From contig OX597824.1 of the NCBI GenBank assembly GCA_951406725.2, forward strand, positions 63,054,001 through 63,118,000: DNA of 64,000 bases, written 5' to 3'. Both the position numbers and the translations under genes were made by a program. The DNA comes from Octopus vulgaris. Lineage: Eukaryota. The notes beneath the pieces were generated by a model. The model was not told the DNA's origin. It did not search any database and worked only from the letters and a program-made list of their open reading frames with translations. Position 1 is the stretch's first letter. Every line of letters begins with the position of its first letter. Below are positions 1,821 through 58,545 of the stretch, one piece after another.

Positions 1821-5896
<4,076 letters not shown>

Positions 5897-6215: not shown

Positions 6216-9200
6216 TAGTTTTATTTTTATAGCGTGCTTTCACTTCACTACCGAGCGCAGCTCTGTGTGCCTTGGGTATGTGCTGTGATTTGTTGTGATG
6301 CTCTGATGGTTATTGTATGGAAAGTGTTCTGCGTAGGATGTGTGCAGTGCCTAGTAGTGCAATTTTCTGTATGTTATATGTGTTTGTAAGTCCTGGTGTT
6401 TTTGTTATGTATTTGTCTGAATATTTTTTTATCATGCCTAATGCACCTACTATGATAGGAATTGTTTCTGTTTTCAGATTCCACATTCTAGTTACCTCTA
6501 TTTCCAGGTCTTTGTATTTTGAGAGTTTCTCCATTTCTTTTAGAGACACGTTGTCATCAGCCGGTATTGATACATCAATTAGAAAGCATTTTTTTCTTCA
6601 TGATCTCTGACAACTATATCTGGTCTGTTGGCCTTAATTTCTCTATCTGTGTGTATCGGCATATCCCAGAGTATGGTTGCTTTCTCGTTTTCTGTGACCT
6701 TTTCTGGTGTGTGCCTATACCATCTTTTTTCTGTTGTTATTCCATAAAGTTGGCATAGCTTCCAATGTATGTAGGTTCCAACTCTGTCATGTCTGTGAAT
6801 ATATTCCTTCTTAGCCAGGACTGGGCAGCTAGAGATAATATGATTTATTGTTTCTTGTCCATCTCCACATATTCTGCAGTTACTTGTTATATTTATTTTC
6901 ATTACATGTTTTTGGTAATTTCTGGTGGGGAGGCTTTGGTCTTGTGCTGCAATTAAAAATCCCTCTATTTCTGCTTTGAGTCCTGAGCTTCTCAACAATT
7001 GCTGGGATTTTTCTTTGTCTATTTCTTTTGCGTTTAGTTTAGTCCAGTATTTACCATGAAGGGGATTTTCTTGCCATCGTTTTATCATGGTTCGTTGCTG
7101 TTCTATTTTTAGTTTGGATTTCATTTGTTTTATAGCTTTTGTTGTTTCTTCTTCTTCTTCTTCTTCTTCTTCATGTTTATTAGGTGGTATGATTTCTTGT
7201 TTGTATTTGTCAGCTTCCTTAAATACTGAGAACAGTTTTTTGTTTTGCTCGTGTTTTGCTGCTATCTGGATCAGTTTTCCTTCCTTCTGAAGTAGATATT
7301 TTTGCATTCCAATGGTGGTTATTTTATAGTAGTTTTCCTGTTGTATAAGGCCTCTACCACCTTCTATACGTTGTATATATAGTCTTTCTATGTCAGATTT
7401 TGGGTGATGCATCCTAGATCCTGTCATTAATTTTCTTGTTTTCCTATCTATTTTGGTCAGGTCATTTCGTGTCCAGTTAAGGATATTGTAGCTGTAACTT
7501 ATAACTGGGACAGCTAAAGTGTTGATACCTATTATCTTGTTTTTAGCATTGAGCTCTGTTTTTAGTATTGATCTAACTCGTCTATAATATTCTTTTTTAT
7601 TTTCTCTTTCATTTGTGTGTGTTGTGTCTTATCTAGTTCATGGATTCCTAAGTATTTGTAAGTTTGGTTTTGGTCTAATTCTTTTATTTCATTGGTTTTA
7701 TCTAGTGTGATGTTGTTACTCTTAACTAGTTTTCCTCTTTTCATGGTTACTTTGGCGCATTTTTCTAATCCAAATTCCTATCTATTTCTTTGGTAAATCC
7801 ATGAACTGTCTTTAATAGTGTTTCCAGCTGTTTGTCATTTGCAGCGTATAGTTTTAGGTCATCCATATATAAAAGGTGGCTGATCGTTTTGCCGTAACAT
7901 TTATATCCGCATCCAGTTCTATTTAGCATATCAGATAGAGGTGACAGTGCCAAGCAGAAAAGGAGTGGAGAGAGCGTGTCTCCCTGGAATATTCCTCTTC
8001 TAATGGGGATGTCTTTGGATTTCATGAGTCCCTCTTTTGTTTGGAGGTGTAGGACTGTTTGCCATTTATTCATAGAGTGCTCTAAGAATTTTATGATTGT
8101 TGGTGCTACTTTGTTAATGGCTAGTGTTTCGAGGATCCATGTGTGGGGGATGCTATCAAACGCCTTTTTGTAGTCAATCCAGGCCATACTGAGGCCTTTC
8201 TTCTTTCTGTGGCTGTCTTCAGTTATTGCTTTATTAATCATTAGTTGATCTTTACAGCCATATGAGCCTTTGCGGCATCCTTTCTGCTCTTCTGGGAACA
8301 GTTTGTCTTCGTCCAGGTGCTTGTTTAGCCTTTGTGATATCACTGCAGTAAATGCCTTGAACATAGTAGGGAGGCAGGTTATTGGTCTGTAGTTTTCTGG
8401 TTTTTCTGTTTCATTTGATTTGGGAATTAAGATGGTTTTCCCCTTCGTGAGCCATTCAGGCATTGTCTCTGGTTCTGCTAGTACGTTGTTAAAGTTTTCA
8501 GCTAGCTTTTTGTGCATTCCTGTTAGATATTTCAACCAGAAGTTGGGGATCTTGTCATGCCCAGGTGCCTTCCAGTTGCTTAGTCTTTGCAGTGCCTGGG
8601 TGACCTCTTCAGTTGTTACGGGGGTCCAAAGTTGTTCAGATGCCGAGTTTGTTATTTTGATACTCCTTTTTTTTGGTGGTTCGTTCGCCGACCATATTTC
8701 TCTCCAGAATTCTTCCAATTCTTCTGCCTTTGGTGCTGCAGTGACTTCTATTTTACTTTTGCCCAGTTCTTGGTAGAACTTTTTGGGGTTGGAGTTGAAC
8801 TTTTTGTTTTCTTCAAAGAAGCGTTGGCGTTTCTTGTACCGGCGGATCCTTTGTGCTTTGGCAAGGATATCTTGCTTCAGCTTTTCTTTTATTTCAGGCA
8901 AATCTTTCTCTGTGATGTTATATTTGCGGAGTATTTTTGTTCTCTTTTTGTTGCTCAGTAGCGTTGATTGTTTGCTGATTTCATTAAGAATCGAGAGGTC
9001 TTTTCTAATTTGTTTTTATTTTGCTTTGAATGTTATTTATCCACAGGGTTTGTTTGGGTGGTGGTACTCCTGTTTGGGCGGGTTTGGGTGAGTATCCAGC
9101 TTCTTTTGGTGGTCCATTTTGAGCTCTGTGGTTTTCAGTTCTTTGATTATTTTATTTTTTATATTATCATAATCATTAGGCTCCCCTTCGTTGTTTACAC

Positions 9201-9569
9201 CGTGTTTGTTGGGAATGTTGCGTTTGTCTTCGTGTTTTACAGTTTCAGTGTTTATATTATTGGGCATTGTTGTGTGGCTTCTATCTACATTTTCCTGGTG
9301 TATGTTTTCTTTTAGGTGTTCTATTTCTATTTCTGATATTTTATTTTGTGTTGAAAATGTATCTTCGTACGTTAGCTAATTTATTAGGGTTCATTGCTGT
9401 ATCCAAGTCTATATCTCTATTATTTTCCTTCCATATTTTATATGTATGTGTTGTTGTATTTTCATTTTTTGGGTAGAGTACTGCTGTGTAGTATGCGTAT
9501 AAGATAGAAATGTATTCCTCACGTGTCCATTTACGTCTTTTGGGTTTTATTTGCGGGGCATGATGTACA
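6213..9569 (-). mobile_element. R4/Dong-clade non-LTR retrotransposon, element 2 (distinct family, probably 5'-truncated)
   Basis: Same domain order as element 1 but divergent sequence. Short 3' UTR, (TAA)n on both sides. Confidence 0.9.
6310..9569 (-). pseudogene. RT-RLE polyprotein of element 2 (ORFs 9341-9569, 9037-9267, 7765-8901, 7562-7744, 6579-7427, 6310-6549)
   Basis: RRKWTREEY..NKLANVRR; NWKAPGHD, NYRPITCL, WIDYKKAFDS, GIFQGDTLSP, YMDDLKLY; CRIC-x7-H-x4-C, RHD, RPDIV, KLSKYKDL. Multiple frameshifts. Confidence 0.92.
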
Positions 9570-9672
9570 TTATTATTATTATTATTATCATTATTATTAT
9601 TATTATTATTATCATTATTATTATTATTATTATCATTATTATTATTATTATTATCATTATTATTATTATTAT
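9570..9672. repeat. (TAT)n microsatellite with periodic CAT interruptions
   Basis: Directly visible. Confidence 0.95.
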
Positions 9673-10067
9673 TAATGCATCGAGCTGGCAGCATCGTTAG
9701 CACGCCGGGCGAAATGCGTAGCCGTATTTCGTCTGCCGTTACGTTCTGAGTTCAAATTCAGCCGGGGTTGACTTTGCCTTTCATCCTTTCCGTGTCGATA
9801 AATTAAGTTACGCACTGGGGTCGATGTAATCGACTTAATCCGTTTGTCTGTCCTTGATTGTCTCCTCTGTATTTGGCCCCTTGTGGGTAGTAAAGAAATA
9901 GGTATTCCTCCGTTGGTGCGTTCTGAATTAAAATTTCGCCGAGGTCGATTTTACCTTTCATCCTTTCGGGTTCGATAAAATAAGTACCAGTTAAACACTG
10001 GTGGCGATGTAATCGACTCATCCCCTCCCCCAAATATGCTGGCAAAATTTAAAACCATTATTATTAT
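9673..10067 (+). mobile_element. tRNA-derived SINE family B, dimeric body
   Basis: A-box-like tggcagcatcgtt, B-box-like gagttcaaatt. Body (ctgag/aatt..tttcatcctttc..gtcgataaa) occurs twice. Many copies in window. Confidence 0.8.
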
Positions 10068-25301: not shown

Positions 25302-27640
25302 TATTTCATTACATTTGCCATAAAGGCAGTACATAGAGTAAAGTAGCTTTTGACGAGGACATTAATGAAATGAATGATAATGGGAGATGATAAGGATGGG
25401 AGTAGACAAAAAGTGCCCGCCGACTTCTGCTTCTTTAAAACATTGTTCTTTAAAACCAAACACAAAACGAGGTATTAAACCTCTTACAACTTTTACAACT
25501 TTTCAATTTTTGGACTTAACAGTCCATTACAAACAACAACATAGTTCAATAATTACATATAATATAAATACAATACATAAAGCCCCTCCTCCTAGACCTG
25601 GCTTACACTTCCCTTAGGAATGCGCCAGCTCTAGGTCGGGGCCCCTCAAGTCGTATCACATAAAAAATACATTATCACTATTCCCTTCCTCCTCTTTCCA
25701 GACCTCCAGTCAAATATCTAGCCGCCTGCAGAGCAGACCACGTTGACAGCCGGGGAGTTCAGAAAGAAAGCGAAGTGCCTATTATCAAATGTTTGTGTCA
25801 CACAGTTCCACAATTTATGACTCATCCTCAAAATAACTTGTGCCCGTATCCTCTGCCATCCTCCACGCCTTCTCCAAAACCGAATCGAGTTCCGTGTCAG
25901 CATTGCCCGGGTACAAGCGATATCCCTCATTGAGCTCCTTCAGCCCAAACGTCACGTCGAACGTCATGGCCTCCACAGCTATCTGCGGAGGCCATTCGGG
26001 GTCCTGTGTGAAGGCTAAAGGTGCTCCCTTATGGTGCTTTTCTATCACCTTTTCAATATCTCCGCCTCTATGGAAGAAGATTAATACATCGTCTTTCCCT
26101 GGGGGCGGGATATCCAATTCCTTCATTGGCGGCACAGTTCCCGCCAGCGGTGTTTCTTCTCCTGCCGGTGGCACAACCCCAACCGACGTAGTTCCGGGAC
26201 ATTCCGTTACTATGTCACCGACTGCCGGCAATATCCCGTTTCTCTTCCTCTTTTTTTTCTTTTCAACTGAGGGAGGGTGCGTCTCCTCCGTGGCCGGAAG
26301 ATTCGCCTTCCCCTCCTCATCCCTAGGATCCTTCGGTGAGCACCCATTGTTGCTCACCTTCTTCCTCTTTCGGCCCCAGTTTGAGGAGTCCTCCGCTTCC
26401 TCGGCCGTCTTCATTCCCTCTTCTACAGGGGCCTCACTTGACTGCTCCGGGACCTTATTTTGTTCCCAGGGACAGTTTTTCTTTATATGACCGGACTCCA
26501 AGCACCGATGACACCTGGGGGCGACCCTCAAGTATCACCGGGTACCTGCACCCGGCCATTTTCAAAAAATCTGGAAAAACCAGATTGGCTGATTGGGTCC
26601 AAAGGGTCAACATTGCTTTTGACTCAACCCAAACAGCCGCAGGAAGAACTTTCACATTAAGAAGCTTGGTCCCGCTGCTACCCAGACCCCGGCGGATAGT
26701 CTCCTCTATCCACTCGGGTTTTATCCCGGGTGGCAGCCCGCAGATCCAAGCTTTCGTCAACCTCTTCCCATGATACGTGGGAAGAAATAAAATTTCCTCA
26801 CCTTCCAAGGGTTCACTAGCAAATTTGCGAGCCTCTTGAGGGGTATCAAAAAGCAACCACACCGTTGCATATCTGACACCCCTGGAAATGAATTTAATTG
26901 TTGGCAAATACTCTGCCAACTCCTTTTCAATTGCCGTTTTTTCGAATAGGGCGATGGTGTCGAGTGACTTGGAGTAGGTTCTCAACGCCACTGTCCTATC
27001 TTCACGGTCTTTTAACCACTTTTTAGGCGGTATAATCTCCCACTCCAAGGCAGTGGCTTCATTCTTCCTTGCCATGTGTAAAAAGTTCAAACAAAGTTCA
27101 CAATAGATTTAAAAATGAAGAAAGATATAAAAAAAAGAAAGAAGACACAACAGAAGGGAAGAAAAAAATAAAATAACAGTGCAATAAAGTTTTTGTTCCG
27201 AACCAAATGATAGACACGAAGAAGAGTTCAAATGATAGCAAAGAAAGCAATTTTCAGCCGAAAGTACTCCTGGCCAATAATCCACAGAGAATAAAATTTT
27301 CAATAATTTTCTTTTTTTCTTCGGCCGAAAGGTACTCCAGGCCTCTGTATAATCCACAGGTAAAAAATAATTTCTCACAATTACGTGAGAAAACACATAT
27401 CTCCACTGCAAGGCAGATAAAAACTCTGAATCCAGTAAGGACTCCTTGCTAGTACAAAAAATAAAACCTACAAGCAACAAATCCTACTGGACTCAAGAAG
27501 CAAAAAGTCTTACCTTACAGTAGAGCGTCTTTTAATTCACCAGCTGCACACCAGCGTGGTGACTTCAGTTCAATTTTCGCCAGCTGCAAATCAGCGTCGC
27601 GACTTCAACAGCGAGTGAAGAACAACTAACGACCGGAACC
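25302..27640 (-). mobile_element. Non-autonomous ORF1(Gag)-only non-LTR retroelement with 15-bp TSD
   Basis: TSD ggaagcaagcttctt at 25287-25301 and 27641-27655. ~565-nt 5' UTR, one ORF1-like gene, ~500-nt 3' region ending in AATAAA at the junction. No RT. Confidence 0.85.
25815..27075 (-). pseudogene. LINE ORF1/Gag-like protein: RRM-like region, CCHC knuckle, disordered basic tail. One frameshift at the G5 run 26517-26521
   Basis: ORF 26455-27090 (MARKNE..YPVILEGRP) joins ORF 25815-26531 (RCHRCLESGHIKKNC). This is the L1/Tx1-type ORF1 layout. NLS-like GRKRKK and KKKKRKR. Confidence 0.8.
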
Positions 27641-31479: not shown

Positions 31480-31527
<48 letters not shown>

Positions 31528-31533
<6 letters not shown>

Positions 31534-31588
31534 TGTCACACGCTGACGAGAGGTCAATACCTCGAAACTCGAGTCCGTGTGTATCATA
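31528..31588 (+). ncRNA. Type I hammerhead ribozyme, copy 1 (predicted cleavage after GUC, C31575)
   Basis: cacacg-CTGACGA-gaggt caat acctc-GAAA-c tcga g-TC-cgtgtg. Stem I extends via tatgat/atcata. Confidence 0.92.
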
Positions 31589-31879
31589 AGTTGAAGACGG
31601 GAAGGATGACTTCCCTTTGCAAATACTGACAGGACACAGAAAGTGTGTCTATGGCCAGCTGGAGGAGTGTGTCCTCCTGGGGCTAAAAACTACAGTAGCA
31701 TCCACCCTTAGGGGTAGCCATATTGAGATGGCAAATATACGTCACGATGTGTTACCGCTACTGTATATAACTCACTTTGATATTTATCATTGTTTGATTT
31801 CACTTTTTCAATATCAGCGACAGTGGACGCTGGAAAAAGTATAAGTATTTGTGAAGGAAATCTAATTCTCGCCGACAAC

Positions 31880-31940
31880 TATGATTGTCACACGCTGACG
31901 AGAGGTCAATACCTCGAAACTCGAGTCCGTGTGTATCATA
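31880..31940 (+). ncRNA. Type I hammerhead ribozyme, copy 2 (predicted cleavage after C31927)
   Basis: Same as copy 1. Stem I extends further with caact/agttg. Confidence 0.92.
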
Positions 31941-32096
31941 AGTTGAAGACGGGAAGGATGACTTCCCTTTGCAAATACTGACAGGACACAGAAAGTGTGT
32001 CTATGGCCAGCTGGAGGAGTGTGTCCTCCTGGGGCTAAAAACTACAGTAGCATCCACCCTTAGGGGTAGCCATATTGAGATGGCAAATATACGTCA

Positions 32097-32131
<35 letters not shown>

Positions 32132-32702
32132 AGGCTGGCCCTTGTGAATGAGAGATATAACTCACTTTTGCTAGCTGAGTGATCTCGAAGTGTACCGTGT
32201 TTACAATGCCAGCAGCTACCAGTTGACAATTTCATAATTTCCTATTGTTACACAGACATACACAGATAACGTACACACAGTCTATTCGTTTTATACCTGC
32301 ACTAGTAGTAGTAGTAGTAGTAGTAGAACTAGTAGTACTAGTAGTACTAGTAGTAGCAACAGCAGCAGCAGTAGTAGTAGTTGCTGTTGTTGTTAAGCAA
32401 CAAGACTAGTAAGGGTGATTAGGTGTTGGTCTAGGTCTTAGGGACTAGAGACCCCAGGCTTTGGAAAAAAAATTTTCTTCGTCTTGTTGTAGTCGAGGGC
32501 TCTTCGTTGACGCCCGTCACCACTGGGAAGTGGTCCTCGAAGTCGCTGGAAATGGAGATCTCCAGGTCCAAATTCTTGAACGGCTGCTGCTGTTGCTTCT
32601 GCTGCTCTTTCTGTCACTTGTTTCTACTACCAACATCTCTGTATGTGTGTGATATCATTGCATGTAATGAAATATTACAGATACTTATACGCACGCACTT
32701 AC

Positions 32703-39587: not shown

Positions 39588-40880
39588 CGAGGGGCGTTCA
39601 ATAAGTAATGCCCCTGACCCACTTCCCATAGCAGTAGAGCAACGAAACTTGGCACAGTTATTAGTCTTTTTCTACATAGGAACCACCCAGAGTTACGCAT
39701 TTCTCCCATTGCTTGATGCAGCTCTGGAGACCGTTTTTATAGACGACCCCAGCTTGGTCCTCCAACCTGAACGTGACTTCAGAAATCAAGGCTGCATCAT
39801 CTGGGAAACGCTTTCCTTTTAAAAACAACTTCATGACTGGGAAGAGGTGAAAATCAGAGGGTGCAAGGTCAGGAAAGTAGGGGGATGGGGGAGGAGTTCA
39901 TAGCCATACGCCTGTGCTTCTGATTTGGCGACAAGCGAGTTGTGGACCGGAGCGTTGTCCTGCAGGAGGAGGATGCCTTTGCTGATCTTGCCCCGCCTCT
40001 TGATTTTGATAGCTTCTCTTAATTTCCTCAAAAGTGAAGCATAATAGGCTCCTGCAATTGTGGTACCCTTTGCCAGGAAATCTGTCATCACTACTCCGTC
40101 CTGGTCCCAGAAGACTGTGAGCATGACCTTGCCAGCGGAGGGCTGCACCCTTGCCTTCTTTGGAGGGGGTGAGTCACGGTGCTTCCACTGCATTGACTGG
40201 GCTTTGGTCTCTGGATCATCGTGATGGACCCAGGTTTCATCCTGTGTAATCAGTCTTTTGAAAAATTTTGACTCCTCTTCTCGGCAAATCTCCAAATTCA
40301 TCCTCGAGCACTCGACGCGTTCTTGCTTCTGGAAAGGTGTGAGCAACCTGGGAATCCATCTGGCAGACACCTCCTTTTGCATATGCAAATGGTCATGAAT
40401 GATAGTTTCCACAGACCCGGTACTAATCTTGATCTCATGGGCTATTTGGCGAATAATTATGCGTCGATCTTCCAAAATGGCAGCCTCAACGTGACGGACA
40501 GATGCCTCATCAATGGCAGAAGGGGTGACCAGATCTGGGAGCTGTTTCCACAGAGTTCCGACCATGTTTGAATTCACGATGCCAGCGTTTTACAAGGTCA
40601 TATGATGAGGCATCATCACCATAAGTTACTTTCATTTCATCAAAAGTCTCCCGTGGTGTCCGTCCTTTCAAATACAAAAACCGGATCACTGCTCGACACT
40701 CAACAGGCTCCATTTCACACTTGACTCGGTTCAAACACCTGTAAATCAGAAACCACAATTAATTTACAGCTGTAATTTGCCACTTACTCTATAGAGATAT
40801 AAATGATTGCACATGCAGCATTTCAGCTAGATCAAACAACTGCAAGTGGGTCAGAGGCATTATTTATTGAACGTCCCTCG
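39588..40880 (-). mobile_element. Full-length mariner (DD34D-type) transposon, 1293 bp
   Basis: TA TSDs. ~37-bp TIRs cgaggggcgttcaataagtaatgcccctgacccactt / aagtgggtcagaggcattatttattgaacgtccctcg. Confidence 0.95.
39661..40713 (-). pseudogene. Mariner transposase, frameshifted
   Basis: MEPVECRAVIRFL.. HTH, WIPRLL, QDETWV, QDNAPVH, (Y)xPDLAPSDFHLF, ends SYVEKD*. Split between ORFs 40510-40758 and 39831-40577 and a further frame. Confidence 0.92.
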
Positions 40881-57094: not shown

Positions 57095-57390
57095 CTATAC
57101 TGCTACGGTTACCCTCGCATGTAGGGGCTCTTTGAAATATTTGTGAGTAACATATTGTTTGTGCGTGCAGGGAGAGAAGGTTTCATCTCTAATGTTTAGG
57201 ATGTTATCTGTTGATTGTACAAAGTTTAATTTTTCAGTAATACAGAGTTCACATTTGGTACTCCGTCCCCTGTATTTTTTGGCTTTAGCAATGATTTTCC
57301 ATTCTATCTGGGGATTGCTTATTCTACCTTCATTCAATATCCATATCATATTTGATAGGGATGCTGCATTTTGTTTCTCTGAATGACATG
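57095..57390 (-). pseudogene. C-terminal GIY-YIG endonuclease fragment of a Penelope-like element
   Basis: SLSNMIWIL..IEWKII..Y..KCELCITEK..ILNIRDETFSPCTHK fits the PLE endonuclease C-terminal pattern LSxxIW..IxWxI..CxLCxxEK..LNxRxE..CxH. Confidence 0.75.
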
Positions 57391-58545
57391 ACTGGCATGA
57401 AAATTTAAGACACTAAGAGATTTTCCTATTTGTCATGAAACTTAAGATGAAACCAATGGTAGCCTTAATTCACAAATAAAAGTTAGACAAACATGCCCCA
57501 CCCCCACATATTTATCAATAACAAGAAAAGTAGCTAGTTCGAAAATCTCTATAAGAGATGAAAGTAGTAAATATAATGACTGAGAATTAATGTTTGTCGC
57601 CACATCAATATGGTTGTTCGATGTTATTACAGATTTTAAGCCCAGGAAGATCCATCTACAATCTGCACCCGGTATATATTGCAAGCAGGGAGCGAATCTC
57701 AACCATCTTCTAGCAGACGGCGGGATCACCACAGCAAACGGTTTAGGGTTATTATGGGTTAATTTTACATTTAATTTCTCCAGGGTCAATCCAATCAAAT
57801 ATAATTCATGTACGTGAGGAGATCTAATAAATTATTCCATGTTCTTTCAATTCTCTCACTGTCTTTCTTTCCCTTTTCTCTTGTTCCCTCCCCGTTTCTT
57901 TATGGTCCTTTTCTAAACATGCTATTTGCATAACCATTCTACTTAAATCTAAATCAGTGACATGTCATTGTAACAGTGCTTCTCTTTCTAAACACTTCTT
58001 TTATTTCTTTATACATCTGTATAAAGATCACGAACCACATCTCTATCACCTTTTGAATGGGCGTCGTTACAGGTGATTGAAAATTTATTCTAGGAATAAG
58101 GATCTACTTTTTATCAAACTATATCCCACTATTTATAACTAGAGATAGCTACAGTCAGTAATATATATTTAGATACCTATCAAAACGATTGGGATTAAAC
58201 GAAGCATATTAAACTGATCTGTTTGTTCAGAGCTGGTCCAAAAGTTAAACAATAAGAATAAATCAAGAAATTGACAATATCTATTTCTTTTCATTTATGT
58301 TTCTAAAGACTTAACGGGTTTGAAATGTTTCTTTTTCAAACATTGAGATAGTAAAGTATGGAGCCATCTCAGCTTTAGAAATTCAGAGAAATCTGAGAAA
58401 ACGTTAAACTATTTTAATATTTTTAATTAAAATATCTAAACGAATCCCAGTGCGTTTCCACCTGCTTTTTTCTATATTTCTACTCGTGTGGAACAAAATA
58501 ACTTAGTTTCAGATACATATACGTGTGTGTATGGGAGGTGGTGTA

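Follow-up and report, generated by a model that had tools for sequence, protein, structure and literature searches.

The DNA analysed here (the window) is a 64,000-nt stretch of the Octopus vulgaris genome (contig OX597824.1, positions 63,054,001 to 63,118,000) that is intergenic, repeat-rich and animal in character. Near its middle lies an insertion in a (TA)n tract that consists of two 221-nt direct repeats spaced 352 bp apart, and the repeats are 100% identical and flanked by TA runs on both sides, as an earlier note drawn from the letters alone had described (Table 1). We number the 352-nt unit from window position 31530 (unit position 1). Elsewhere in the window are what we take to be two RTE-like LINE remnants with long RT frames (2123-5803 and 6579-9751, both minus strand) and, presumably, a Mariner-like transposase fragment recognised by its motifs (39831-40589, minus strand). 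ORF remnants of the Gag-like or zinc-knuckle type lie where the GC content is higher (25815-27108, minus strand). A 14-nt match at 32155-32168 is at chance level (E 0.55), and the miRNA matches returned by an Rfam search of the window are TA-repeat artefacts. Run contigs (three runs, guessed to be RNA) cover the unit and not its flanks, a pattern that we gave no weight as a sign of expression, since the unit is far more repeated than the flanks and DNA carry-over would look alike.

Table 1. Features of the insertion and its target (window coordinates)
Feature	Position	Strand	Remarks
(TA)n target run, left	31483..31530	.	last bases overlap the element start by microhomology
Whole insertion	31528..32100	+	one-armed, ~1.6 laps of the 352-nt unit; random 5' end, 3' end fixed at site A
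Direct repeat 1 (221 nt)	31528..31748	+	
Type I hammerhead 1	31528..31588	+	stem I with internal loop; predicted cut after 31575
Hammerhead 1 core CUGACGA	31543-31549	+	
Hammerhead 1 stem II	31550-31563	+	5 bp, 4-nt loop
Hammerhead 1 GAAA	31564-31567	+	
Palindromic stem III segment	31567..31574	+	predicted dimer pairing of two ribozymes, by analogy with amphibian hammerheads (PMC7229834)
Predicted 352-nt monomer RNA between both cut sites	31576..31927	+	branched, highly paired
Site A, internal lap (unit 215-219)	31744..31748	+	main fixed 3' end in the family; putative reverse-transcription start 1
'Tail', site A to site B (43-47 nt)	31749..31795	+	from the copy census and PMC11167929
Site B (unit 260-266)	31789..31795	+	second fixed 3' end, putative start 2; no end here in the window copy
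Direct repeat 2 (221 nt), ending at site A	31880..32100	+	
Type I hammerhead 2	31880..31940	+	identical to hammerhead 1; predicted cut after 31927
Site A as 3' end of the window insertion	32096..32100	+	
(TA)n target run, right	32099..32129	.	

Each repeat carries a type I hammerhead with a complete core (CUGACGA, GAAA and GUC), in which every pair of stems I, II and III is Watson-Crick and C17 falls at 31575 and 31927, exactly as had been proposed. The suggested Rfam check held in part: Hammerhead_1 (RF00163) matched both ribozymes (31537-31581 and 31889-31933; 32.2 bits, E 2.6e-5), although the score just missed the gathering score of 34. Stem III comprises one C-G pair beyond the core A-U and a palindromic tetraloop cap, and the 8-nt palindrome is predicted to form a self-duplex of -10.7 kcal/mol, the co-fold of two ribozymes gaining -4.7 kcal/mol; the short, dimer-prone stem III that had been claimed is borne out by these values, with the palindrome as the predicted contact between two dimerising ribozymes. 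For a single hammerhead, an alternative fold (-19.9) is more stable than the ribozyme fold (-14.0). The 352-nt monomer folds far better than its shuffles (z -5.79, 0/100), brings its 5' and 3' ends close to each other via stem I and, as a circle, reaches -117.4 in its best fold and -113.0 in a ribozyme-open fold. Its G+C content is 151/352 (43%), and the longest ATG-started frame round the circle spans 38 aa, in agreement with the earlier statement that the unit has no credible ORF. No antisense hammerhead core was found in the unit by pattern or by Rfam search (the latter alone covering other ribozyme types), and we therefore rejected a viroid-like RNA with ribozymes in both polarities.

In the genome (2.8 Gb, 227 contigs) the exact 33-nt ribozyme core has 439 matches, against 0 for the control, and a search with the unit gave 3081 first-look candidates, the best 40 of which were scored. 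The copies compared are ~95-100% identical and are dispersed over many contigs, which upholds the proposal of a retrozyme-like, recently mobile element. We examined 87 elements, made up of the 40 best-scoring ones, a choice biased to full units, and 47 further exact-core places among those listed on contigs 1-3, where arms long enough to include the ribozyme are over-represented; both samples thus favour long arms. These 87 elements, all located elsewhere, share the unit junction of the window copy and differ in their ends, which makes an assembly artefact at the window locus very unlikely. The family is a young, dispersed, protein-less metazoan non-LTR retrozyme, a kind already known. A genome search with the Rfam hammerhead model returned 6 loci, none of them related to the unit. 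Other hammerhead families that are unrelated to the unit (L101-L106) include three with a long extended stem II, and some stand in inverted arrangement. One place considered as a full Penelope-like element (PLE; L167 2396-5882) was rejected, as its two cores, which lie 3.25 kb apart in two partial copies, are duplicated together with an AT-rich satellite.

The 3' ends of the copies lie at site A (unit 210-220, mostly 219) or at site B (260-267), 43-47 nt apart, and the ribozyme cut site (46/47) is not used as an end. Nearly half of the elements (40/87) are two-armed, with the arms arranged head to head, and among these 35 pair an A end with a B end, none pairs A with A or B with B, and 5 have one unclassed end, whereas independent 50:50 choice would give such pairing with p 3e-11. 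As L138 and L143 look like one duplicated event, the A+B events may number 34, and in the position-ordered set alone the pairing is found in 20/22 two-armed elements. The one-armed elements (47/87) end at A in 37 cases, at B in 7 and elsewhere in 3. By contrast with these fixed 3' ends, the 5' ends scatter across the whole unit, the longest arm extending for 2169 nt or 6.2 laps. The permuted ends that had been anticipated were accordingly seen on the 5' side only, the 3' ends being fixed at two sites, and with 5' ends scattered in this way the idea that the element begins at the ribozyme by design falls away. The window copy is likely a one-armed product that started from site A and stopped after 1.6 laps, and nothing special is required to explain why it begins at stem I. 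Nor is its 1.6-unit layout, taken by itself, the mark of a circle that the earlier note had seen in it: a fixed start at ~219 and a random 5' stop suffice, and an uncut linear multimer gives the same. The case for a circle is instead built on private variants that are fixed in all laps of other copies (see below).

A preference for TA repeats, also proposed beforehand, was confirmed by a TA flank at 109/127 3' ends. Target duplications of 11-13 nt were found at 3/10 loci tested (L001, L066 and L179), while at the other 7 the duplication is absent, short or TA-only. Because the census reveals a tail, 5' truncation, an inverted 5' arm and a microsatellite target, the copies have the anatomy of PLE-type insertions, and the suspected link to Penelope is supported by the tail, inverted arms and TA targets alike. 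The earlier interpretation hence stands as regards the retrozyme and its mobility, but it had overlooked that starts are fixed at two sites and that insertions can have two arms. In L1 twin priming both target strands prime on one RNA, giving a 5' inversion, and the second start is variable. Unlike in L1, both starts are here fixed, internal and close to each other, and the two arms each run several times over the same sequence. That the elements form one such family and were inserted by twin priming of the PLE type is, in our judgement, very probable.

Turning to the template, we found that arms cross the cut site without an indel in 197/197 spans, and that TA-flanked 5' ends near the cut site amount to 9 distinct ones, as opposed to 479 matches just downstream, with 0/9 falling exactly at 47; a pile-up of 5' ends at the cut site, which could have served as a fossil of cleavage, was not seen. 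With neither an indel nor a pile-up at this position, we take the template to have been continuous, either a circle or an uncut multimer. Sequence variants bear on the choice between these. Across 16/85 loci, 21 rare variants are fixed in all the laps that span their position, 10 of them (in 8 loci) over at least 3 laps and 11 across both arms, with private variants fixed in up to 6/6 laps. Ten further rare variants, equal in number to those fully fixed over at least 3 laps, occur in some laps only, and some of these partly spread variants come from later duplication or conversion near the inversion. Three rare variants were followed genome-wide in a ranked DNA search that placed exact matches at the top and scored the best 40. 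Within these 40, L012 was the only carrier of 32C>T and L022/023 of 344C>A; 68A>G was carried by L076 and by two single laps that are unrelated to it and belong to other haplotypes. The differing haplotypes led us to reject these two places as the parent monomer of L076. No multi-unit source array for the three variants was found by this search in the assembly, which is haploid and could lack source loci. Given lap-fixed private variants and no source array, the simplest reading is that both arms copied one monomer repeatedly by going round it, the monomer probably being a circle. An RNA-editing footprint is unsupported, as A>G makes up 4/20 lap-fixed and 16/190 single-lap substitutions (p 0.11).

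The alternative that fares best, and which we nevertheless consider unlikely, is PLE twin priming on a linear multimer that had been transcribed from arrays already in place and left uncut, with the ribozyme as a passenger or acting at another step. Such a template also predicts that cut sites are passed without scars or a pile-up of 5' ends, and the anole PLE works mainly on uncut RNA and in vitro can do without its ribozyme (PMC11167929), while in Xenopus only 1/9 predicted retrozymes cleaved and 8/9 did not (10.64898/2026.07.22.740005). A multimer would likewise account for unit-specific variants that lie in register from the 3' ends: in L022/L023 the loop-2 variant 26C>G (unit position 26) occupies 4/6 laps, in a succession that reads alike from either 3' end, and in L065 154C>A is confined to the last lap of each arm. 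These patterns imply mixed multimer templates in some events, and they suggest a single RNA on which the two arms set out from one and the same unit. The 26C>G pattern is compatible with a three-unit template, and the variant itself may weaken cleavage. As a general account, however, the linear multimer is opposed by the private variants fixed in up to 6/6 laps with no source array in the assembly, by the eight common variants tallied, which are fixed in all laps in 165/176 multi-lap cases and hence indicate that each new haplotype spread from one unit, and by the retention of the ribozyme core and fold between subfamilies.

This last point comes from an old subfamily that is 70-84% identical to the unit (30 loci retrieved out of 2096 candidates) and whose 3' ends lie mostly at the same two sites as in the young family. 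Its invariant core bases are kept (12/12), as against 63 differences over the 337 unit positions compared, and the fold is retained with several two-sided changes; the fold comparison, which spans two lineages only, gives 82.5% paired cells versus ~40-48% for slid controls. The covariation thus comes from about two lineages, and 5/11 old rows include some flank. In most of the old copies L209-L238, stem II has a C-A mismatch at its base and the stem III palindrome includes a wobble, with both end sites kept. A copy of an intermediate subfamily (L289 1394-1612, minus strand; L291), 90% identical to the unit, combines a CCGAUGA core with an old-type stem II; its one arm ends at site A, and a short duplication accompanies it at a non-TA target.

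A further possibility, which we regard as quite improbable, is that the template was a cut linear monomer held together by stem I, a nicked circle on which the enzyme jumps the nick at each lap without any covalent closure. It would explain the lap-wide private variants equally well, and stem I does hold the two ends close to each other in the monomer fold. Yet template jumps usually leave indels or an excess of 5' ends at the junction, and here there is no junction indel in 197 passes and 0/9 nearby TA-flanked ends lie exactly at the cut. We retain the covalent circle as the preferred template.

A candidate source of the enzyme resides in the same genome. A young Neptune-like PLE family (L081-L098 and L279-L288, e.g. 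L084 2126-4468, plus strand) has 781-aa frames with RT and GIY-YIG domains that are uninterrupted in many copies, many of them 98-99% identical, and an apparent upstream ORF; its clade label is based on a Cys motif before the endonuclease, as described in PMC8557442. This family inserts into (TA)n targets and has two 3' ends ~40 nt apart, and in 40 stretches 4/4 two-armed copies pair one end of each kind. A canonical hammerhead was not found in its ends. A second young Neptune-like family (L269-L278; 785-aa frame, RT 73% identical) has a minimal variant hammerhead-like motif near the 3' end. Queries with GIY-YIG, RT and Penelope-type endonuclease sequences recovered these two families together with decayed copies of the Penelope type, and among the copies compared with the unit no homologous end turned up; the window itself holds a decayed Penelope/Poseidon-type endonuclease fragment (57095-57412, minus strand), for which there were 11796 first-look genome candidates, the 150 scored being mostly broken. 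No DNA homology of the unit to PLE ends was detected in 100 PLE stretches, a partly overlapping set drawn from thousands of candidates, in which the unit matched only separate old retrozyme copies or less than 31 nt. Within these stretches the recommended search for an autonomous PLE bearing the ribozyme accordingly came back empty. Without such homology the partner is a candidate, inferred from geometry only: on this basis the reverse transcriptase/endonuclease is likely Penelope-like, and probably of the Neptune clade.

It is very improbable, we think, that an autonomous PLE exists of which the unit forms the pseudo-LTR and the copies are truncated partial tandems. The tail, inversion and TA bias are of the PLE type (PMC8557442), Xenopus retrozymes are related to pLTRs (10.64898/2026.07.22.740005), and one young copy (L064 1037-1657; L292) is situated exactly at the AT-rich 3' end of a Neptune-like copy on the same strand. 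That neighbour, however, is old and frameshifted and its own end sequence is unrelated to the unit, so that we rejected a PLE-retrozyme chimera in favour of nested insertion. Moreover, no element (0/87) is joined to or continues into a PLE ORF with RT and GIY-YIG, long arms repeat the unit itself and pLTR homology is missing from the 100 PLE stretches; the earlier note had allowed for the unit being a solo pLTR should it occur only as the end of a full PLE, and 0/87 elements are the end of a PLE ORF. Scarcely credible, finally, is a tandem made by local DNA-level duplication (minisatellite growth) or by misassembly, for although unequal-crossover amplification has been proposed by Li et al. 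(10.64898/2026.07.22.740005) and L065, L066 and L067 do have internal duplications or variants shared near the inversion junction, it is opposed by the fixed 3' ends, the strict A+B pairing of inverted arms, the target duplications and the dispersal over contigs.

The family has all the features of metazoan non-LTR retrozymes that we examined, as set out by Cervera and de la Pena (2020, PMC7229834): one type I hammerhead per unit, tandem and dispersed copies, no ORF and a highly paired RNA, a unit of 352 bp (350-390 in mussel, 330/350 in axolotl, 150-450 bp for the kind), a GC content of 43% (<50% in metazoan retrozymes), a weak palindromic stem III as in amphibian ribozymes and target duplications exceeding 4 bp (11-13 nt here). 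Its sequence is probably unrelated to theirs, and we found no mention in that article of fixed start sites or inverted arms such as those seen here. Coral, mussel and axolotl retrozyme RNAs are circular, with expression and cleavage demonstrated, and mobilisation from the circle by a PLE or a LINE has been proposed (PMC7229834). A plant LTR retrozyme is ruled out by the type I rather than type III hammerhead and by duplications of 11-13 nt rather than 4 bp. In Xenopus, 24/57 retrozyme families match known TEs, nearly all of them PLE ends (Li, Clavereau and Pollet 2026, 10.64898/2026.07.22.740005); the octopus family shares with vertebrate retrozymes the co-occurrence with PLEs and the proposed hijacking of PLE enzymes, but homology to PLE ends was not found here in the 100 stretches compared. 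The same authors favour local tandem growth by unequal crossover and call the mechanism open, whereas the anatomy of the copies described here points to multi-lap reverse transcription.

With PLEs the family has in common two internal starts that bound a tail, a tail mostly confined to one end, AT-rich or (TA)n targets, extension of both target strands and an inverted 5'-truncated arm (PMC11167929, PMC8557442). PLE insertions are biased to TA, have an inverted 5' arm and carry a tail of 30-40 bp that is mostly found at one end (Craig 2021, PMC8557442), and in the anole PLE Poseidon two internal starts define the tail and both target strands are extended (Frangieh 2024, PMC11167929). The octopus tail is longer (43-47 nt versus 30-40) and the unit lacks an ORF. 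In vitro no strand difference in start site was seen for the anole PLE (PMC11167929), whereas here each arm has its own site in 35/35 classifiable two-armed elements. In the literature searched, with supplements and most subscription papers outside the search, we found neither strict one-site-per-arm pairing nor lap-fixed variants in retrozymes, and no octopus or other cephalopod retrozymes.

From the family, its fixed ends, target, arm geometry and lap-wide variants, all of which are observed, we infer a sequence of five steps. A transcript with two ribozymes, such as the window locus could give, would self-cleave, probably as a dimer (step 1), and the 352-nt monomer would be ligated into a circle (step 2). 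A PLE protein would then nick (TA)n and prime at site A (unit ~219; step 3), and in events such as the 40/87 sampled the opposite target strand would also prime, at site B (unit ~262-265) of the same RNA, giving head-to-head arms (step 4). Each arm would run a variable number of laps through the cut junction before a random stop (step 5), mixed multimers presumably serving as the template in a minority of events. This full model, with PLE twin priming on a covalent 352-nt circle into TA repeats, is on balance the account we favour, with moderate confidence. More tentatively, and with the balance tipped slightly against so specific a claim, the copies may record a PLE dimer on one ribozyme-made RNA circle, each subunit priming its own strand at its own fixed site and copying multiple laps.

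The element itself is of an ordinary, known kind, but its copies make an open mechanism directly testable: the re-insertion of animal retrozymes and the origin of PLE tails and inversions are both called open in the literature that we consulted. The family offers sharp predictions: it names two starts, assigns each to one target strand, takes a 352-nt circle for the template and points to a PLE of the same genome, with intact frames, as the candidate enzyme. If the PLE-dimer reading is true, it would explain the movement of animal retrozymes together with the one-sided tail and inverted 5' arm of PLEs. The borrowed enzyme would then go by the structure of the RNA and not by a pLTR sequence, since the search found the unit to have no sequence homology to the active Neptune-like family. 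RNA-templated genome writing is a further field for which a natural RNA of 352 nt that directs multi-lap, TA-targeted insertion would be of interest.
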